From positions 33,955 through 97,954 of the forward strand of contig JBQLZK010000019.1 of NCBI GenBank assembly GCA_052168235.1: 64,000 nucleotides of DNA, read 5' to 3'. Position numbers and translations under genes: made by a program. The stretch is from Thainema sp. (GTDB lineage Bacteria; Cyanobacteriota; Cyanobacteriia; Phormidesmidales; Phormidesmidaceae). The notes under the pieces are model-generated. The model ran no database searches. It worked only from the letters and a program-made list of their open reading frames with translations, and was not told the origin of the DNA. Shown here piece after piece: positions 43,403 to 53,326 of the stretch (positions within the stretch are counted from its first letter, which is position 1; every line of letters starts with the position of its first letter).

Positions 43403-46400
43403 ATGGCAACTCATTTCACAGGCTTAGAAATCGCGGTGGTCGGCATGGTTGGGCGCTTTCCGGGTGCTAGCAACGTGACCGAATTTTGGCAAAATCTGCA
43501 GGCTGGAGTCGAATCCGTTTCTCACTTTAGTGATGAAGAACTGCTGGCTGCTGGTACTGATACCGAGACGCTGCGTCACCCTAACTACGTCAAAGCTCGC
43601 GCTATTTTGGATGACGCAGAGTGGTTTGATGCCGCGTTTTTTGGCTTGAGTCCTAGAGATGCCGAAATTCTTGATCCACAGCAGCGTGTCTTTCTAGAGT
43701 CAGCCTGGGAAGCGCTGGAAACGACTGGCTATAGCCCCCAAACGTTTCCGGGCACGATTGGCGTATATGGTGGGGCAACTCTGAGCGGCTACCTGTTTAA
43801 TCTCTATAACCACCGCCAGCTCACGGAGACCGTGGGGCAGTTTCCGCTGGTTTTGGGGAATGGGCGGGAATTTCTCACCACCCGCGTTTCCTACCTGCTG
43901 AATCTGCGTGGGCCAAGTCTGAATGTGCAGACTGCCTGCTCAACCTCCCTCGTTGCCGTACATCTGGCTAGCCAAGCGTTGCTCAGTGGCGAGTGCGACC
44001 TGGCTTTGGCTGGCGGTGTTTCGATTCGCTTGCCATTGAAAGGGGGATACTGGTATCAAGATGGTGGAATTTCATCGCCTGATGGGCACTGCCGCGCTTT
44101 TGATGCCAAGGCTCAGGGCACTGTGGGCGGTAGCGGCATTGGGTTGCTGGTGCTGAAGCGGCTAGAAGAGGCCATCTGCGATCGCGATACTATTTATGCT
44201 GTGATTAAAGGCTCAGCCCTTAACAACGACGGTGCGACCAAAATGAGCTTTACTGCGCCCCGCATTGAAGGGCAGGCCGAGGTGATTCAAGCGGCGCAGC
44301 AGATGGCGGAGGTAGAGTCGGAAACGATTCAGTATATTGAAGCGCATGGCACGGGCACGGCTCTGGGCGATCCAATTGAAATTGCGGCGTTGACGCAGGC
44401 GTTTCAGACGGCGCAAACCGGATACTGTGCTCTGGGGGCAGTCAAAACTAACATTGGTCATCTCGATGCAGCGGCTGGCGTTGCCGGACTGATTAAGACG
44501 ATTCTGGCTCTCCAGCATCGGCAGATTCCGCCTAGCCTGCATTTTGAAACGCCTAATCCACAGATTGATTTTGCCCACAGCCCGTTCTATGTCAATACCC
44601 AGCTTGCTGATTGGCCTGCCAATGGCTCACCGCGTCGGGCTGGCGTCAGTTCCTTTGGTATGGGCGGCACCAATGCCCATGTCATTCTGGAAGAAGCACC
44701 AATGCCTCTACCGACCAGTGGATCGCGTCCCTGGCAACTGCTGCTCTGGTCAGCCAAAACAGATACGGCTTTGGAGAGCGCCACCCAGCAGCTTGCCACC
44801 CGTCTGCAAGAACAGCCTGACCTAGACTTGGCCGATGCCGCTTATACGCTCCAGGTTGGTCGCCAAGGATTTGTCCACCGCCGGATGGCAGTCTGTTGCG
44901 ATCGCACTGACGCAGTCGCGGCTCTCACGAACCTGGATCAGCGAGTCGCTACTCAAACGGCATCTGATCATCCGCCTGCTGTGGTGTTTTTATTCCCCGG
45001 TCAGGGAACACAGCATGTCGGCATGGGGCGCGATCTGTATGTAACAGAACCCGACTTTCGACGCATTGTCGATGACTGCGCCGAGCAGCTACTGCCGCAT
45101 CTGGGCCTGGATTTACGACAGGTGCTGTATCCTGCGGCTGACCAAACAGAATGGGCCACGGCTCAACTGCAGCAAACTGCGATCGCACAGCCAGCGCTGT
45201 TTGTGGTTGAATATGCCCTAGCGCGTCTGTGGCAGACGTGGGGCGTACAGCCGCAGGCCATGATCGGTCACAGTCTAGGCGAGTACGTTGCGGCCTGTCT
45301 GGCAGGTGTGTTTCAGCTTGAGCAGGTGTTGCTTCTCGTTGCTCAGCGAGGGCGGCTGATGGAGCAGCAGCCAGCGGGCGCAATGCTCAGCGTTGCCCAG
45401 TCTGCCGATCAGGTGATCACTTATCTGCCGGAGTCGCTGACGCTGGCGGCTGATAATGCCCCTAATCTTTGCGTTGTGGCTGGCACAGCGGCAGCTATTG
45501 AGCAGTTTCAGGCTCAGCTTCAGGCTCAGGGAATTGCCTGTCGCTGGCTGAAAACCTCCCACGCCTTCCATTCTCCTTTAATGGATGGAGCCTTAGCTCC
45601 GTTCCGCCAGCAGCTCGCGCAGGTACAGCTCAATTCGCCGCAAATCCCCTGGGTTTCCAACTTAACTGGCACCTGGATTACGCCTGAGCAGGCAACCAGT
45701 CCCGACTACTGGGTGCAGCACCTGCGCCAAACCGTTCGCTTCCGCACCGGACTTCAAACCTGCTGCCAAAATAATGCTCCTCTCCTGCTAGAAGTCGGCC
45801 CCGGACGGACGTTGAGCACGCTGGCACGTCAGCAACCGCAGCTAAATTCAGCCCAAACTGTCACGTCTATGCGCCATCCTCAGACGGTTCAGGCTAATCC
45901 GTCTGGCGCATCCAGTCCGACCAATCCAGCCGATCAATCCGACATTGCCTGCCTGCTAACTGCACTGGGGCAGCTCTGGTTGCAGGGTGTCTCAATTGAC
46001 TGGTCAGGGTTCTACGCCCATGAGCAGCGGCGACGGGTTCCGCTCCCCACCTATCCCTTTGAACGACAGCGCTACTGGATTGATGCTCCCCAGCCAGAGC
46101 AGGCTCCTGCTTCGACTACCCCAAATTTGACGAAGAACAGCGATGTAGCCAACTGGTTCTATCAACCAACCTGGACGCGATCGCAACTTGTTCAGCCTTA
46201 TTCTTCAACTACCACACTTTCGGACGTTAAGTCGGAAACGGTCGAATGGCTGCTGTTTGTCGATGATGATCCGCTGGTAAATGCGATCGCAGAATTACTC
46301 CGGCAGCGGGTTAACGCCATCACGGTTCAAATTGGCGACCACTTTAGCTGTGTGGATGAGCATACTTACACGCTAAATCCGCATCGTCGCGAGGATTACA

Positions 46401-48157
46401 CCCAGCTACTAAACGCGTTGGGAGCAAATCGGCCAGCCCGAGTGCTGCACGGCTGGAGCTTTGGTGTAGCAGATCGGTCGGATAGTTGTTTGCCCGATAA
46501 TCCAGAGATTCAGGCGCGAGGCTGTTATAGTCTCCTGTTCCTGACTCAGGCAATGGCGCAGGGCGGCTGGAACCATCCCTTACAAGTCACGGTATTGACC
46601 AGCAGCATATTCGATGTAATCGGCACGGAGTCTTTCATACCGGCACAGGCAACGCTGCTAGGCCCCTGTACCGTCATTCCACAGGAATATCGCTCCATCA
46701 CCTGTCGCGTTGTGGACTGGTTGCGATCGCACAATCACAATCAATCTGACCATTTACATACACTGCTCCAGGATGTGCTAGCCGATTCCCCTGAGCGAGT
46801 CGTCGCCTATCGCCAGGGACAGCGCTGGGTACAGCGGTTTGAGCCTGTTGCTTTACCAACCGCACCCGCCACGCAAACAAAGCTGCGTTCCAGCGGTGTA
46901 TATCTGATCACGGGTGGCCTCGGCAAAATTGGCCTCACCCTAGCGACTGAACTGGCGCAGACCTATCAGGCTCAGCTCGTACTGCTCAGCCGTCGCCCCT
47001 TCCCGCCGCGATCGCAGTGGGATGCAGTTCTGTCAACGGCTCAATCGAATGATGCAACAGCTACTACTATTCGACAACTACAGGCACTGGAAGCTGGTGG
47101 AGCCGAGGTTTTAGTCCTATCGGCTGACGTTGCAGATGTTGAGCAGCTACAGGCAGCTATTGCCCAAGCCGAGGCGCAGTTTGGCCCGCTCAATGGCGTG
47201 ATTCATGCGGCAGGAGCGGTGGGTGAGCAGGCGTTTCGGCTGATTCAGGAGACGGGGCTAGCCGAACTAGAGCAGCAGTTTCGCGCTAAAGTGCAAGGAG
47301 TGCAAATCCTGGCACAGGTGCTGCGGGATAAACCACTGGACTTCTGTCTGCTCTGCTCGTCGCTGGCTTCAATTCTCGGTGGACTGGGCTTTGCGGCCTA
47401 TAGTGCGGCTAACCAGTTTATGGATGCATTTGCCCATCAGCAAAACCGCCACAGCACCTTCCCCTGGATCAGCGTCAACTGGGACGGCTGGCGTTTTCCA
47501 GCTCAAGCGGATGTCCAATCAGAAGCGGATGCCCAATCAGAATCAGACGACGCGATTGGGAAAGCGATCGCAGAATTGGCGCTCACGCCGGAGGAAGGTG
47601 TTGCGGCTTGGCAGCGCATCCTGGCCTACACCGTAGCATCCCAAATCGTTGTCTCAACCGCAGATTTATCCGCACGACAGCAGCAGTGGCTAGATATGCC
47701 AGCACCAGCCGTATCTGCCCCCACAGCGAACCAAACGCTCTATGCTCGACCCTCGCTGTCTGGAGCCTACGTCGCGCCGCGCAATTCCGTAGAACAGGCG
47801 ATTGCCGACGTGTGGCAGTCATTTTTAGGTATCGATAGGATTGGCGTTCACGATAGCTTTTTTGAACTGGGTGGTCATTCCCTGCTGGCGACGCAGATTA
47901 TTGCTCACCTGCGCCAGCATTTCCAGGTTGATATTCCTCTACGCGCCCTGTTTGATGATCCCACCGTTGCCGGACTGGCAAATGCGATCGCACTTGCCCA
48001 AGATCAACCAGCAATGCCATCAATTCCCGCTCTGCCCCGCCCCGATGTCTCTACGGCGCAGCATCAGCTTGAGCACCTGGATCAGCTCTCGGATCAGGAT
48101 GTCGATGATCTGCTGCGCCAATTGACTCAGCAACTTGCTAACCAACCCACACACTAA
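43403..48157 (+). CDS. Type I PKS: KS(NRPS-fed type)-AT-KR-ACP
   Basis: QTACSTS, HGTGT; AT GHSLG/HAFHS; KR YLITGGLGKIG, YSAAN; ACP GGHSL; acidic C-terminal helix. Confidence 0.93.
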   Translation: MATHFTGLEIAVVGMVGRFPGASNVTEFWQNLQAGVESVSHFSDEELLAAGTDTETLRHPNYVKARAILDDAEWFDAAFFGLSPRDAEILDPQQRVFLESAWEALETTGYSPQTFPGTIGVYGGATLSGYLFNLYNHRQLTETVGQFPLVLGNGREFLTTRVSYLLNLRGPSLNVQTACSTSLVAVHLASQALLSGECDLALAGGVSIRLPLKGGYWYQDGGISSPDGHCRAFDAKAQGTVGGSGIGLLVLKRLEEAICDRDTIYAVIKGSALNNDGATKMSFTAPRIEGQAEVIQAAQQMAEVESETIQYIEAHGTGTALGDPIEIAALTQAFQTAQTGYCALGAVKTNIGHLDAAAGVAGLIKTILALQHRQIPPSLHFETPNPQIDFAHSPFYVNTQLADWPANGSPRRAGVSSFGMGGTNAHVILEEAPMPLPTSGSRPWQLLLWSAKTDTALESATQQLATRLQEQPDLDLADAAYTLQVGRQGFVHRRMAVCCDRTDAVAALTNLDQRVATQTASDHPPAVVFLFPGQGTQHVGMGRDLYVTEPDFRRIVDDCAEQLLPHLGLDLRQVLYPAADQTEWATAQLQQTAIAQPALFVVEYALARLWQTWGVQPQAMIGHSLGEYVAACLAGVFQLEQVLLLVAQRGRLMEQQPAGAMLSVAQSADQVITYLPESLTLAADNAPNLCVVAGTAAAIEQFQAQLQAQGIACRWLKTSHAFHSPLMDGALAPFRQQLAQVQLNSPQIPWVSNLTGTWITPEQATSPDYWVQHLRQTVRFRTGLQTCCQNNAPLLLEVGPGRTLSTLARQQPQLNSAQTVTSMRHPQTVQANPSGASSPTNPADQSDIACLLTALGQLWLQGVSIDWSGFYAHEQRRRVPLPTYPFERQRYWIDAPQPEQAPASTTPNLTKNSDVANWFYQPTWTRSQLVQPYSSTTTLSDVKSETVEWLLFVDDDPLVNAIAELLRQRVNAITVQIGDHFSCVDEHTYTLNPHRREDYTQLLNALGANRPARVLHGWSFGVADRSDSCLPDNPEIQARGCYSLLFLTQAMAQGGWNHPLQVTVLTSSIFDVIGTESFIPAQATLLGPCTVIPQEYRSITCRVVDWLRSHNHNQSDHLHTLLQDVLADSPERVVAYRQGQRWVQRFEPVALPTAPATQTKLRSSGVYLITGGLGKIGLTLATELAQTYQAQLVLLSRRPFPPRSQWDAVLSTAQSNDATATTIRQLQALEAGGAEVLVLSADVADVEQLQAAIAQAEAQFGPLNGVIHAAGAVGEQAFRLIQETGLAELEQQFRAKVQGVQILAQVLRDKPLDFCLLCSSLASILGGLGFAAYSAANQFMDAFAHQQNRHSTFPWISVNWDGWRFPAQADVQSEADAQSESDDAIGKAIAELALTPEEGVAAWQRILAYTVASQIVVSTADLSARQQQWLDMPAPAVSAPTANQTLYARPSLSGAYVAPRNSVEQAIADVWQSFLGIDRIGVHDSFFELGGHSLLATQIIAHLRQHFQVDIPLRALFDDPTVAGLANAIALAQDQPAMPSIPALPRPDVSTAQHQLEHLDQLSDQDVDDLLRQLTQQLANQPTH

Positions 48158-48162
48158 CTCCT

Positions 48163-48936
48163 ATGATCTCCGCCTACTCCACTAATCAAGCTACAAACTG
48201 GATTCGCTCTGAACAGCTCAATCCCGATGCGGCCCTCCGCTTATTCTGTCTGCCCTATGCTGGCGGTAATGCTCGCAGCTTTCGTCACTGGTCGGCTGCT
48301 CTGCCTGATGATGTAGACGTTTGCGCCATTGAGCTACCGGGACATGGCACTCGCTTAACTGAACCGCCGATTAGCGATCTGGATGAGCTAGTCACTGCGA
48401 TCGCACATGTCATCCAGCCGTTTCTAGATCGTCCCTTCGCTCTATTTGGTCACAGCATGGGGGCACTCCTTAGCTTTGAGCTAGCTCGCCATTATCGTCG
48501 CCATAATCAGCCGATGCCCACCCATCTGTTTGTCTCCGGCCACCGAGCACCGCAACTCCCTGACCCAGAGCCTCCCATTTACGCATTACCGGAGTCTGAG
48601 TTTCGCGATAAGCTGCGGCGGCTCCAGGGTACACCCCAAGCTGTGTTAGACAACGATGAATTTATGGCATTGCTTTTGCCTGTGTTACGGGCCGACTTCA
48701 CGGTTTGTGAAACGTACAGCTATCGGCCTGAACCACCTCTATCGTGCCCAATTACGGCTTTTGGTGGTACTCAGGATGCAGCTACGCGTCGAGGCAGACT
48801 GCGAGCCTGGCGCTATCAAACTGACGCACGATTCACTAAGCATGTGCTACCCGGACATCATTTTTTCATCCACTCTGCCGAAACAGAACTCTTACAACAC
48901 GTTCGCACGGGCTTGGATCTAGCGACCATCCGCTAA
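48163..48936 (+). CDS. Stand-alone thioesterase (type II-like)
   Basis: LFCLPYAGG, FGHSMG, LRADF, PGHHFF. Confidence 0.92.
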   Translation: MISAYSTNQATNWIRSEQLNPDAALRLFCLPYAGGNARSFRHWSAALPDDVDVCAIELPGHGTRLTEPPISDLDELVTAIAHVIQPFLDRPFALFGHSMGALLSFELARHYRRHNQPMPTHLFVSGHRAPQLPDPEPPIYALPESEFRDKLRRLQGTPQAVLDNDEFMALLLPVLRADFTVCETYSYRPEPPLSCPITAFGGTQDAATRRGRLRAWRYQTDARFTKHVLPGHHFFIHSAETELLQHVRTGLDLATIR

Positions 48937-50386: not shown

Positions 50387-52870
50387 TTAGGGTGCGGGGG
50401 GTTGGAATTGGAGTTGGGCGAGGAGTTGTTGGGTGAGGGGATGATCAGAGAGGGTGTTGGCTTGGTTTGCGGCGAGGGCTTGTTGGAGGCAATAAATAAA
50501 GTTGCTCCGCACCGTTCGTGTATTGGGATGGGTTTCACCAAGAACCTGCAACAAAATTCTCAGAGCTTCGGCATATAGCGGTTCGGCCTCGCTGTATTGC
50601 CCTTGAGAATAATAGAGCCCTGCCAGATTATTCAGGCTGGTAGCAACATCGGGATGCTCCTCACCTAAGAGTTGCTTCCTTAAAGTCAACGCCTGTTGAT
50701 AAAGCGGTTCGGCCTCGCTGTATTGCCCTTGAGAATAATAGAGCCCTGCCAGATTATTCAGGCTGGTAGCAACATTGGGATGCTCCTTGCCTAAGAGTTG
50801 CTTCCTCAAAGCCAACGCCTGTTGATAAAGCGGCTCGGCCTCGCTGTATCGCCCTTGATCACGATAGAGTACGGCTAGATTATTCAAACTCGTGGCAACA
50901 TAAGGATGCTCCTCCCCCAATAAGCGCTTATCCATCTCCAGCGCTTGGACATAAAGCGGTTCCGCTTCGCTATATCGACCTTGATCACAATAGAGTCCGG
51001 CCAGACTACCCAAACTCGTGGCAATATCTGGATGCTCTTCCCCCAATAGGCACTTCCTTAGCTCCAGCGCTTCAACGTACAGCGGTTCCGCTTCGCTATA
51101 TCGGCCCTGTGCGCTATAGAGTCTGGCCAGATTATTCAAACTCGTGGCGATATAAGGATGCTCCTCCCCTAATAAGCGCTTATGCATCTCCAGCGCTTGA
51201 ACATACAGCGGTTTCGCTTCGCTATATCGACTTTGCGCATGATAGAGTTCGGCCAGATTATTCAAACTCGTGGCGATATAAGGATGCTCCTCCCCTAATA
51301 AGCGCTTATGCATCTCCAGCGCTTGAACATACAGCGGTTTCGCTTCGCTATATCGACCTTGCGCATGATAGAGTCCGGCCAGACTACCCAAACTCGTGGC
51401 AATATCTGGATGCTGCTCGCCCAGTAACTGTTTTCTCATAGCTAAGGCTTGGACATACAGCGGCTCCGCTTCACTATATCGACCTTGCACACGATAGAGT
51501 CCGGCCAGATTGTTCAAACTGGTGGCAATATAAAGATTCTCTTCTCCCAAGCGATCGCGAGTTACGGCCACACATTTTTCATACCAAGGTTCTGCTTGTG
51601 TATAAAGTCCTTGTCCTCCGTAAAAACAGCCCAAACCAGTAAACGGCCGAGCCAATTCATCATCCGCAACCTGAGCAATCCAATGCGTTGCTGACTCCTC
51701 TACATGAGGTACCATCTCACTCCAAGCCAAAATTTGAGCTTGCGTCGGTGCCCAGCCAATCTCTTTCGCCGCTGCTACCATCCCGTGACAATAAGCCCCA
51801 ATCAATGCTGAATCTTCCGGCAACTTCGTCCGAATAAACCGCTGAATCAACTGATGATACTGATATCGCCCCGTCTCCACTCGCTTCAGCAAACTCAACC
51901 GCACCAGTTCATCATCCCGCCAATCCTCCAACTCCTCCGCGTCAGCCTCCGGCAAACACGCCTCCACTCGCTCCCACGGAATCGGAGCCAGCGCAAAACA
52001 GCTCAGCAAACAGGCCAACTCCTGCGCCTCCTCACTCAGCTCCTGCCAACTCAACTCAAATGCACTAGCCACACCCAAATTGGCTGTCATCCCCTCTTCA
52101 GTTTGCTTCAGCGCCCGCGCCTGTAACTCCTGCTCCTCCAGCCTGCACCGCAACTCCGCCAGCGACAGATCCGGCTTCCGCGCCAAAAATCGCCCCACCA
52201 ACTCCAACCCCAGCGGCAAATCACCCAGCCACTCACACAGCGCATCCGCCGTTTCTGGTTCCGCATCAATTCGCTCCGCCTCCGCCAACTGCCGCAACAG
52301 ATCCAGCGCATCCGCCCGCGCCAACACCCCAATCGGCAACTTCGCAATCCGCGACCCCAACTCCACCCGCGTCGTCATCAACACCGTAAACCGATCATCA
52401 CGCGGCAAATACGGCTCCACCTGTCGATAATCCGTCACATCATCCAGCACCACCAGCACCAACTCTGGTTTCTGTGCCGCCGGATCAAACCTCGGCCACT
52501 GTCGCCAACAAAACGCCACCTGACCCACCACATCCAAATCCTCCGGCGGATTCAGCCCCAGATAGCTCTTGCCAAACGTAATCATCTGCGTGCCAATATC
52601 TGCATCACCCTCCGTTCCCCGCGCCGACAGCCAGCACACCCCGCCCGGAAACGTTTCGTGCCAATAGCGCTGGGCATACTGAACTGCCAGTTCCGTCTTG
52701 CCCACGCCACCCATCCCCGTCACGGCAGTGATCACAATCCGGTTTTCCTGCTGCAACTGCTCATCCAGCCGCACCAAATCCTGGTCACGACCGACAAAGC
52801 TGTTCGTGCCCAAGAACGGAATATTACTGGGAGGCGTTATCTTCGTCCGTGCCTGGTCAGACGGCTCCAG
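50387..52870 (-). CDS. NB-ARC + TPR STAND protein (bacterial NLR); start unresolved
   Basis: PSNIP..FVGR, Walker A GMGGVGKT, Walker B VVLDDV, TTR, GDLPLGL, and nine 42-aa TPRs. The frame is open up to the TGA at 52871-52873; the ORF track start is a TTG at 52813. Confidence 0.88.
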   Translation of the reverse strand: MEPSDQARTKITPPSNIPFLGTNSFVGRDQDLVRLDEQLQQENRIVITAVTGMGGVGKTELAVQYAQRYWHETFPGGVCWLSARGTEGDADIGTQMITFGKSYLGLNPPEDLDVVGQVAFCWRQWPRFDPAAQKPELVLVVLDDVTDYRQVEPYLPRDDRFTVLMTTRVELGSRIAKLPIGVLARADALDLLRQLAEAERIDAEPETADALCEWLGDLPLGLELVGRFLARKPDLSLAELRCRLEEQELQARALKQTEEGMTANLGVASAFELSWQELSEEAQELACLLSCFALAPIPWERVEACLPEADAEELEDWRDDELVRLSLLKRVETGRYQYHQLIQRFIRTKLPEDSALIGAYCHGMVAAAKEIGWAPTQAQILAWSEMVPHVEESATHWIAQVADDELARPFTGLGCFYGGQGLYTQAEPWYEKCVAVTRDRLGEENLYIATSLNNLAGLYRVQGRYSEAEPLYVQALAMRKQLLGEQHPDIATSLGSLAGLYHAQGRYSEAKPLYVQALEMHKRLLGEEHPYIATSLNNLAELYHAQSRYSEAKPLYVQALEMHKRLLGEEHPYIATSLNNLARLYSAQGRYSEAEPLYVEALELRKCLLGEEHPDIATSLGSLAGLYCDQGRYSEAEPLYVQALEMDKRLLGEEHPYVATSLNNLAVLYRDQGRYSEAEPLYQQALALRKQLLGKEHPNVATSLNNLAGLYYSQGQYSEAEPLYQQALTLRKQLLGEEHPDVATSLNNLAGLYYSQGQYSEAEPLYAEALRILLQVLGETHPNTRTVRSNFIYCLQQALAANQANTLSDHPLTQQLLAQLQFQPPAP
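50510..51645 (-). repeat. Tandem 126-bp TPR-coding repeats (about 9 units)
   Basis: Repeated LNNLA.LY..QGRYSEAEPLY.QAL...K.LLGEEHP..ATS, with near-identical adjacent DNA units. Confidence 0.9.
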
Positions 52871-53326
52871 TCAATTGTTGTAGGTAATATTAATCGTGCC
52901 GCCGCTCACACCTTGAATCACAGGCGCATTCGGATTATTGATCTGAACAGCCGACCCACCATAAACGTTCATCACGTTTTCGCCCAGGATCTCACCAATA
53001 TTGATTTCCTGGTTGATTTCGTGGGCAAGCTGCTGAATCTCTTTCGCAAAAACCTGATCCTGCTGCATGGCTGCTTCTAGTTTTGGCACCAGGATATTGT
53101 TAATCTGAGCGTCTGAAACCTTTTGGCCAGATTCAACAGTCTTCTTAAGTTCTTCTACATCAGAATGACCGCTCAGCTTTTGCCAAATCTTCTTGCGCAG
53201 TGCGTTCATCTTCTCTAGCACCGCTGGAGTTAGCTTCTCTGCTGCATGTTCAGCGCTTGATTCTAAGAATTTTGCGAGTGCCAAAGCTGCGATCGCACCT
53301 ACGGTCAGCGTCACCGGATCTGCCAT
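52871..53326 (-). CDS. Small helical protein (Bell/HeLo-like effector candidate) with a C-terminal G/N/Q/V/I-rich motif
   Basis: Hydrophobic N-helix MADPVTLTVGAIAALALAKF, helical body, tail NVMNVYGGSAVQINNPNAPVIQGVSGGTINITYNN. Confidence 0.75.
   Translation of the reverse strand: MADPVTLTVGAIAALALAKFLESSAEHAAEKLTPAVLEKMNALRKKIWQKLSGHSDVEELKKTVESGQKVSDAQINNILVPKLEAAMQQDQVFAKEIQQLAHEINQEINIGEILGENVMNVYGGSAVQINNPNAPVIQGVSGGTINITYNN

Follow-up and report, generated by a model that had tools for sequence, protein, structure and literature searches.

The 64,000-nucleotide (nt) stretch of Thainema sp. DNA analyzed here, referred to as the window (assembly GCA_052168235.1, contig JBQLZK010000019.1, positions 33,955 to 97,954), carries on its minus strand a small effector-type gene and, directly behind it, a long frame encoding a NOD-like receptor (NLR) with NB-ARC and TPR domains. 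The effector open reading frame (ORF) and the NB-ARC/TPR frame are in phase, and the TGA at 52871-52873 is the sole stop codon between them. At this junction the minus strand reads ATT ACC TAC AAC AAT TGA CTG GAG CCG TCT GAC, which translates to INITYNN*LEPSDQARTKITPPSNIPFLGTNSFVGR. A first-pass annotation of the window had claimed one shared frame split by a single TGA, and both the minus-strand reading and the ORF coordinates confirmed this. The in-frame stop codon and the small RNA structure that follows it are the subject of this work. The features of the locus, in the order in which they are transcribed, are:

52874..53326, minus strand: effector ORF of 151 codons (151 aa) with an ATG start, from translation; 52871..53326 with the TGA stop included
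52874..52990, minus strand: effector tail, residues 113-151, ILGENVMNVYGGSAVQINNPNAPVIQGVSGGTINITYNN, a candidate amyloid-type signaling motif with two pseudo-repeats
52871..52873, minus strand: in-frame stop TGA (UGA), with U before and C after it, from the minus-strand reading
52863..52870, minus strand: 8-nt spacer CUGGAGCC, consensus CUN SAG NC from the comparison of loci
52845..52862, minus strand: stem-loop S1, with 5' arm GUCUG (52858-52862), 8-nt loop ACCAGGCA (52850-52857) and 3' arm CGGAC (52845-52849)
52832..52854, minus strand: candidate pseudoknot stem S2, loop AGGC (52851-52854) with GCCU (52832-52835), 9 nt past S1
52811..52813, minus strand: TTG, the first canonical in-frame start past the stop, codon 20 of the downstream frame, from a frame scan
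52166..52786, minus strand: NB-ARC domain (PF00931, 8.8e-12), residues 29-235 of the downstream frame, P-loop GMGGVGKT
50480..51650, minus strand: TPR array of about 9 repeats with approximate limits (TPR_12 5.6e-135 in 8 stretches; TPR_10 in 9 stretches)
50390..52870, minus strand: NLR frame of 827 codons with the NB-ARC and TPR matches; 50387..52870 with its terminal stop

The downstream frame opens with the 24-residue linker LEPSDQARTKITPPSNIPFLGTNS, after which FVGR follows. It has the features of a STAND (signal transduction ATPase with numerous domains) or NLR protein, namely an NB-ARC domain with a P-loop and then a TPR repeat sensor of 8-9 units, and it also matches the NCBIfam model FxSxx_TPR (2.4e-102). 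The TTG at 52811-52813 sits past the sequence PPSNIP and 5 codons ahead of FVGR, in agreement with the first-pass statement that the only standard start after the stop lies downstream of a PxN[IL]P motif. It offers the one route to an NLR of independent initiation, which would lack the linker. Some of the TPR units between 50480 and 51650 are near-identical or identical as protein, and SRYSEAKPLYVQALEMHKRLLGEEHPYIATSLNNLA was found twice. Highly conserved internal repeats are noted for fungal and bacterial NLRs in the preprint on bacterial amyloid signaling sequences (BASS; 10.1101/2020.01.06.895854).

Independent sequence data were available for the junction. A contig of public run X2, possibly from the same sample as the window assembly, spans 52756-52906 with zero differences, the TGA included. 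A 911-nt contig from an RNA library of a relative (about 93% alike) covers the NLR start, the TGA and the effector, and no difference is listed at the stop; the library may contain DNA, and the junction-spanning contig bears on co-transcription at most. Runs X1 and X3 cover other parts of the stretch, away from the stop. Since the X2 contig and the RNA-library contig both keep the TGA, it is not an isolated assembly error.

Related junctions were collected in several searches. When 61 related genomes were queried with the junction carrying X at the stop, loci of other genera were found in which one match covers both the effector and the NB-ARC start and contains exactly one stop. A profile of 15 junctions (A1) was then run against 401 genomes of the class, and among the 150 matches listed 58 spanned the junction with exactly one stop, which by our own count was TGA in 52 and TAG in 6. 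The full set comprised 94 distinct loci, of which 59 junctions were read from DNA, 12 were covariance-model matches and 23 came from a pattern scan. The stop is TGA in 79 of these loci and TAG in 15, with TAA or a sense codon in none. The 71 loci from sampled genomes span 12 cyanobacterial families, and the pattern scan added further species representatives. The test set in the first-pass annotation, whether homologous loci conserve an in-frame stop at this position with selection on both sides, thus gave a positive outcome, stronger than expected (TGA or TAG in 94/94), with synonymous leucine variation after the stop. Membership was at first decided by a P-loop expression within 70 codons and an upstream frame of more than 90 codons, a filter that removed L034, L035, L037, L039, L040, L078, L082, L087 and L091. 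On re-examination, L034, L037, L078, L087 and L091 all had TGA and the RNA element and are extra to the 94, while L035 duplicates L118, L039 and L082 are classical pairs (described below) and L040 is a decayed fragment.

The choice of stop codon differs from the genomic background. ORFs of at least 400 codons in this genome end in TAA (818), TAG (663) or TGA (343), and since TAA is thus favored and TGA is the rarest, the preference for TGA and the avoidance of TAA at the junction are not background. The pattern TNNNCTNSAGTCGNCGGGANNGGMACCGNC, which fixes the context and the main stem class and leaves the stop codon unconstrained, was found in 36 stretches among 185,579 species genomes (one each), all cyanobacteria by record titles, with 29 TGA and 7 TAG. 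A metagenome collection gave 12 more stretches (11 TGA, 1 TAG), so that TGA or TAG occupies the position in 48/48 codon-free matches, and viral contigs gave 0 matches. In three of the 36 pattern matches from species genomes (L153, L167 and L180) only 18-32 in-frame codons precede the stop, with an open NLR frame behind it, and decay or a frameshift of the effector or an assembly error may be the cause. The idea that the identity of the stop is specific to a genome, as a suppressor tRNA would have it, was rejected: G012 carries three TAG loci, yet G116 has one TGA and one TAG locus.

A single uninterrupted relative was found. In P0001, a 510-aa metagenomic protein, Lys takes the place of the stop and ITYNN-K-LGSSGRAW runs on into NB-ARC without a break. 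The uninterrupted form seems rare, although the search is weak evidence of this. Because this protein exists, an effector-NLR fusion is viable as a protein. Versions with a sense codon were also sought among class-wide stop-free matches, and the 13 retrieved (L101-L113) proved to be classical NLRs that have a Met and a motif of their own, or to have unrelated N-termini.

The nucleotides around the stop are conserved as well. T precedes it in 58 of 71 loci despite a variable amino acid at that place, and C follows it in 66 of 71. The codon that comes first past the stop is CTN in 62/71 (CTG 33, CTA 22, CTC 6, CTT 1), the second is GAG in 30 and CAG in 22 loci and never GAA or CAA, and the third is NCG, with C and G invariant in alignment A2 while the first base and the amino acid vary. 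Since leucine is kept with synonymous CTN variation, the stretch after the stop appears to be read as protein in frame, and because nucleotides are kept across amino-acid changes, a constraint at the RNA level acts on top of that on the protein. The linker itself is conserved as protein, L[EQ]SSG.AP.K.STP..NLP..FVGR, and the distance from stop to P-loop across loci is 49-62 codons, mostly 52-53.

Ribosomes that could translate this linker are limited by the available start codons. In 43 of 69 loci no ATG, GTG or TTG occurs between the stop and FVGR, and a start codon (GTG) stands directly after the stop in only 2 of 71. CTA, CTC and CTT are not initiation codons. Since these codons offer no start and the first start lies at or beyond FVGR in 43/69 loci, the conserved linker can be translated only by ribosomes coming from the effector ORF. 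A CTG start coupled to the stop, an alternative raised in the first-pass annotation, is unlikely with CTG at this position in 33/71 loci only. The in-frame MNVYGG start proposed there for the readthrough product is not conserved either, and the closest locus of this kind (L006) has Ile at that place.

The region following the stop contains a covarying RNA structure. Counting the stop as nt 1-3, the 5-bp stem S1 begins at nt 12, after an 8-nt spacer, in 59/59 loci and closes a loop of 8 or 9 nt. The stem is perfect in 50 of these loci and has 4/5 pairs in the other 9. On alignment A2, 96.9% of the cells are paired versus 77.5% after shuffling (0/500 as high), partners slid out of register give 21-47%, and 46 cells carry double changes. 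Two positions illustrate the exchange of pair types, with UA 29, CG 11, GC 11 and GU 2 at one and GC 38, CG 10, UG 9 and UA 2 at the other. RNAalifold predicted 4/5 S1 pairs unaided. On the 94 sequences of alignment A5 the figures are 97.6% paired versus 79.6% shuffled with 62 double-change cells, in an alignment that was fitted to the model and in which 23/94 rows come from the pattern that fixes 4/5 S1 pairs. Furthermore, codon 4 varies at its synonymous third position together with position 2 of codon 8 (Pro CCG, Arg CGG, Gln CAG), a coupling that is hard to account for by the protein and points to a constraint on RNA.

In all 59 loci the 3' part of the S1 loop is complementary, over 3-7 bp, to a segment 8-12 nt past the stem. 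This second stem, S2, also shows covarying pairs: AGGC/GCCU in the window and CGGC/GCCG, UGGC/GCCA, GGGG/CCCC, AGGA/UCCU, CAGGA/UCCUG, GCAGGAA/UUCCUGC or GCGGA/UCCGC elsewhere. The mean S2 score was 11.32 with the own partner versus 10.20 with permuted partners (standard deviation 0.28; 0/1000), which is a modest margin. In one fixed register 71.1% of the cells are paired versus 56.7% after shuffling, and slid registers give 34-59%. The comparison suggests that S1 and S2 form an H-type pseudoknot with an A-rich third loop, S2 being less certain than S1.

The element is specific to junctions with an in-frame stop. Covariance model R1, built on it, matched only the window locus in its own 7.5-Mb genome and not the three classical effector/NLR pairs present there. 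In 151 genomes R1 gave 30 matches in 24 genomes, all at a TGA or TAG between an upstream frame of 121-174 codons and a long NTPase frame. When applied to 45 other loci it matched six in-frame loci, and no match was obtained in 39 classical or unrelated NLR loci. The element is likewise missing from the classical pair of the sister species. The tails encoded upstream of the stop belong to several motif families, among them the NVQQxFGGQGLQVND...PVIQ, LTKLAxKIGVVNLG and GYQTKxEGGT types, and the downstream partners fall into several NB-ARC classes, apart from a few proteins that show no P-loop match (L118, L135).

Some loci differ in what surrounds the stop. In L100 (G308:C56:89739-91320) the stop (at about 729-731) and the structure come after what by eye is a TIR-domain-like C-terminal part and a GWQINVSGGTVNIG motif, in place of the common helical effector; since this upstream frame resembles a TIR end, the module may serve other effector classes. 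No FVGR or P-loop pattern follows the stop and linker in L118 (G056:C1), L135 (G137:C1), L178, L182 and L192. L118 and L135 continue into other long frames, and L182 into a 145-codon frame with a zinc-ribbon-like start of the form CxxC...CxxC.

In the effector a hydrophobic helix at the N-terminus, MADPVTLTVGAIAALALAKF, is followed by a helical domain and then by a tail rich in G, N and Q at the C-terminus. An AlphaFold2 model places helices at residues 9-23, 34-50, 55-65, 72-89 and 91-112, with a predicted local distance difference test score (pLDDT) of 84-94 over residues 30-110. The tail is modeled as four short strands at low confidence (pLDDT < 50). No Pfam family was found in the effector, with libraries that hold no Bell model, and none is common to the 69 effectors of related loci. 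Matches in Pfam, NCBIfam and PADLOC stayed below threshold and amounted to noise (LIC13259 family, E 0.05; ZorA, E 0.007), and Foldseek returned no match of the model to the PDB at E <= 0.001. The effector is homologous (E 4e-13, 8.8e-13 and 5e-3) to the effectors of three classical pairs of the same genome, in which effector and NLR share a motif:

G000:C17:97972-101373: classical pair L002, ARDQSRVNNFGEFNANTV.FGD on effector and NLR, stop and start overlapping
G000:C1:177796-181131: classical pair L003, NSRNYGFGEFHGTANFGD on effector and NLR, stop and start overlapping
G000:C104:1-2350: classical pair L004, VTINSPVSIQNF on the effector and AGFNSPISIQNV on the NLR

Each of these NLRs starts with its own Met, and its N-terminus repeats the C-terminal motif of its effector. 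In a sister species of the same genus (G001), the NLR whose NB-ARC start is closest (82% identity) likewise belongs to a classical pair (L007), with EVWNVIGHAEKNEFIDNKAPVIKDNTGTININYG as effector tail and EQWNVTGKVERNVYTGNYGPILPNNQGTVNIH at the NLR N-terminus. Both are of the same motif family as the window tail, NVMNVYGGSAVQINNPNAPVIQGVSGGTINITYNN. Because the sister-species pair carries this family on both partners, the window tail is of a kind that is paired with an NLR in close relatives. The family is also present in other in-frame loci, e.g. L086. The NLR frame of the window has no copy of the motif. Its 24 residues from stop to FVGR include nothing tail-like, and the same holds for all in-frame loci that were read. 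This absence from the NLR frames supports the first-pass proposal that one motif copy may serve both partners.

A contig from the RNA library of a related strain (X6) keeps the NLR start, the stop and the effector N-terminus, and at window positions 52879-53177 the 102 nt encoding the tail are swapped in it for an unlike 105 nt and another 144 nt for 141. Since X6 replaces the tail stretch and keeps the flanks, the motif region diverges much faster than its surroundings.

We propose, with a probability of about 70%, that the stop codon is subject to programmed readthrough, which would yield an abundant effector and a scarce effector-motif-NLR fusion with one amyloid-type motif serving both. 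Most ribosomes would end at the UGA and release the free 151-aa membrane-type effector with its prion-like C-terminal motif. A small fraction would decode the UGA by a near-cognate tRNA, probably that for Trp. The leak would be favored by the weak context U-UGA-CUG-GAG and by the compact hairpin or probable H-type pseudoknot, which begins 8 nt past the stop and would stand at the entrance for mRNA when the A site holds the stop. The product, effector-motif-linker-NB-ARC-TPR, would be the only form of the sensor that bears the signaling motif, and its spacing from motif to FVGR (about 25 residues) may be compared with the approximately 29 residues in the classical L004 NLR. Once the TPR sensor is triggered the NLR would oligomerize and gather the motifs, and their fold could then be templated onto the excess of free effector, causing membrane damage and cell death. 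These steps of effector activation and templating are modeled on published BASS and HET-s logic. In this scheme the leak rate would set the ratio of sensor to effector, and a single DNA copy of the motif would suffice for both.

The proposal builds on the anatomy of the locus and its conservation, on the covariation in the RNA, on the absence of a motif on the NLR side and on the fact that most loci offer no usable start. The junction combines a conserved leaky stop in a conserved context, a covarying structure at a fixed short distance and an in-frame, start-poor extension that evolves as protein. Because a leaky stop, a fixed context, an 8-nt spacer, a pseudoknot and startless in-frame sequence make up the layout of viral structure-stimulated readthrough, we read the locus in the same way.

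The closest parallel is Moloney murine leukemia virus (MoMLV) gag-pol, in which a UAG is followed by an 8-nt spacer and an H-type pseudoknot, and viral spacers of at least 8 nt put the stimulatory structure at the mRNA entrance (PMC13517186). The two systems share the leaky stop, the spacer length, the type of pseudoknot, the startless downstream frame and the output of an abundant short and a scarce fused product. In contrast to the viral case, the junction described here would act on a bacterial ribosome with release factors RF1 and RF2, belongs to a chromosomal immune locus, has a much smaller structure (5 bp plus 3-7 bp) and uses UGA or UAG.

Readthrough of UGA by bacterial ribosomes is documented at 3-5% for phage Qbeta in E. 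coli and 1-6% for cat-86 in the same review (PMC13517186), and Qbeta coat/A1 resembles the present case in that such decoding supplies, in a set proportion, a longer minor version of an abundant protein. It differs in being a phage gene whose extension is a structural domain and not a sensor ATPase. We know of no conserved downstream pseudoknot at the Qbeta stop. For E. coli, the readthrough order is TGA>TAG>TAA, with Trp inserted at TGA and Tyr, Gln or Lys at TAG (PMC11126739). The codon after the stop is also reminiscent of the UGA CUA (G) context, a human high-readthrough consensus (PMC4359377), in that CTG or CTA, with G or C next, follows the stop as in the animal and fungal examples, CTG or CTA being present in 55/71 loci (PMC4359377, PMC4207609). 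This context was defined for eukaryotic eRF1, however, and may not hold for cyanobacterial RF2 or RF1.

With respect to amyloid-based immunity, the locus resembles the BASS systems described by Dyrka et al. (10.1101/2020.01.06.895854), as a small effector with an N-terminal helical domain and a C-terminal motif of G, N, Q and hydrophobic residues is encoded immediately upstream of a collinear NB-ARC/TPR NLR in a filamentous-type cyanobacterium. The homology of the window effector to those of classical pairs and the tail family common to the sister-species pair add to this likeness. Unlike BASS pairs, the window NLR has no duplicate motif at its N-terminus, and a single frame is split by a conserved TGA or TAG with an RNA structure. 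The BASS screen demanded a motif common to Bell C-termini and annotated NLR N-termini (10.1101/2020.01.06.895854). Because a matching motif on an annotated NLR N-terminus was required, this screen could not recover the class of the window.

The fungal HET-s/NWD2 system is similar in that an NLR templates a prion-like fold onto a membrane-targeting effector, in the two pseudo-repeats and in the occurrence of all-in-one as well as two-gene forms, as outlined in the Dyrka preprint. The window locus differs from both HET-s/NWD2 and all-in-one NLRs and represents an intermediate, third architecture, in which two products would come from the same codons of one frame; in an all-in-one effector-NLR no stop interrupts the ORF, as it does in the window and all 94 loci. 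The words readthrough, stop codon and in-frame are absent from 10.1101/2020.01.06.895854 and from 10.1101/2024.11.07.622273, on amyloid signaling in antiphage defense, and supplementary tables might list such loci as unmatched pairs. In a full-text search of the literature outside subscription-only work, no account of readthrough turned up for cyanobacteria or for bacterial NLR, STAND or antiphage genes.

Several points weigh against programmed readthrough as proposed here. We infer from sequence the readthrough and its level, the inserted residue, the amyloid templating, the cell death and the antiphage function. The identity of the effector domain as Bell and the amyloid nature of the tail are putative, given no match to a Pfam family or PDB fold and a tail pLDDT below 50. 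A Bell identity draws indirect support from the homology to effectors of classical pairs and from the helical domain with its hydrophobic N-terminal helix. S1 is small at 5 bp, and the predicted fold of 51 nt in the window (minimum free energy −12.1 kcal/mol, z −0.73) is no better than shuffles, of which 46/200 were as good. The support for S2 is tempered by its modest permutation margin and by a register that varies between subfamilies and is only 71% paired when held fixed, and that for S1 from A5 by the fitting of this alignment. The loci are kin by descent, so their counts are not independent events. A canonical start does lie between stop and FVGR in 26/69 loci, including the TTG at codon 20 in the window, and these loci may make a shorter, motif-less NLR by independent initiation. 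Finally, for pseudoknot-stimulated readthrough in a bacterial cellular gene the full-text literature search found no precedent.

The 26 loci with such a start bear on the first alternative, which we consider unlikely. In it the stop would truly terminate translation, and a separate event, either termination-reinitiation or internal initiation, would start the NLR on the codon following the stop or on the nearest downstream TTG or GTG. The RNA structure would then pause or tether the ribosome or tune the coupling, and a motif-less NLR would signal to the effector in some other way. This is consistent with the canonical starts ahead of FVGR, with the GTG directly after the stop in 2 loci, with the CTG after the stop and the TTG of the window, and with the overlapping stop/start coupling that the classical pairs of this genome use. 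However, 43/69 loci have their first canonical start inside or beyond FVGR, and in 36/71 the codon after the stop is non-initiating (CTA, CTC, CTT, CCA etc.). Moreover, protein-level conservation is seen in the 24-30 residues past the stop, even though those starts come after them. Reinitiation needs neither a strict same-frame linkage nor avoidance of TAA, and no route is known by which a motif-less NLR could address the effector.

If the stop is read through, the leak need not be constant. Readthrough could operate as a regulated switch within the sensing logic, an option that we regard as distinctly improbable, in which the fusion would accumulate only when termination by a single release factor weakens. 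The locus would then guard termination fidelity and arm an amyloid-triggered suicide. Phage suppressor tRNAs, stop-codon-recoding phages, an attack on RF1 or RF2, cold or starvation may be the triggers of such a switch.

A conditional gate, for which we see very little probability, has nearly no NLR in healthy cells and a fusion that arises only on termination failure through phage suppressor tRNAs, release-factor depletion or translational stress, so that suppression itself would be the trigger or the licence for cell death. Its expected anatomy equals that of programmed readthrough. The exclusive use of the suppressible single-release-factor stops TGA and TAG, and never TAA, would fit a device that reports on RF1/RF2 or suppressor tRNAs, and readthrough in E. 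coli shifts with temperature and nutrients (PMC11126739). On the other hand, the TPR sensor domain argues for ligand recognition, and not expression, as the trigger. The element has 0 matches in viral contigs, no link to suppressor tRNAs was found, and an odd tRNA(CUA)-like gene of this genome does not fit the UGA of the window.

A recent nonsense mutation, which the first-pass annotation had listed as an alternative, a sequencing error or a decaying fused gene hardly deserves consideration: the all-in-one protein P0001 exists and the short upstream frames of L153, L167 and L180 (3/36) indicate that some loci do decay, but a mutation is refuted by TGA or TAG at the same position in all 94 loci, with 30-60% protein identity and long intact frames on both sides, by the TGA in independent contigs and by the 48/48 codon-free matches. 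Decoding as selenocysteine at UGA, or as pyrrolysine at UAG, has an equally negligible probability. In a bacterial selenocysteine insertion sequence a hairpin stands shortly downstream of an in-frame UGA, as S1 does here, yet TAG is used in 15/94 loci, the position is a linker and not a catalytic site, ARAGORN found no tRNA-Sec in the genome and no SelB scored over the cut-off there (best 188.7 versus 242.25 bits); because of the TAG variants and the missing tRNA-Sec and SelB, selenocysteine is excluded.

Around the locus lie genes for a polyketide synthase (PKS) module with thioesterase, a DUF6940 protein, a phytochelatin-synthase-like protein, an OprB porin and a beta-lactamase-family protein, and there is no obvious defense island. 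The type I PKS module (KS-AT-KR-ACP, 1584 aa) occupies 43403-48936 on the plus strand with the thioesterase next to it and appears to be the end of a polyketide cluster beside the immune locus. Outside the window, G000:C38:24485-26474 carries four tRNA-like genes, namely Gln(UUG, 94 nt), Ala(UGC), one with a CUA anticodon (labeled Pyl by ARAGORN) and a second Trp(CCA). An imperfect acceptor stem is common to the CUA species and the long Gln gene, which may be amber-suppressor-like tRNAs or pseudo-tRNAs. The tRNA(CUA)-like gene was considered as a suppressor for the window stop and rejected, given its mismatched stems and lack of fit to UGA.

Structure-driven programmed readthrough is a textbook device of RNA viruses, and in bacteria it is known mainly from phage Qbeta. 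Amyloid-type NLR signaling and structure-stimulated readthrough are each known, and their combination is new. Gene callers cut NLRs of this kind at arbitrary internal starts, and screens for motif pairs miss the whole class. The compact covarying signal at about 100 cyanobacterial immune loci also provides a natural set of variants for studies of how bacterial ribosomes and RF1/RF2 come to leak. If the proposed readthrough is true, even in unregulated form, cellular bacterial genes would have their first programmed readthrough signal of the pseudoknot type, and two proteins would share one prion-like motif from the same codons. The cyanobacteria would then use a third NLR/amyloid architecture, between the all-in-one and the two-gene forms, which would explain how the prion-like motifs of sensor and effector stay identical with no need to co-evolve, and how the amount of a dangerous sensor is kept low.

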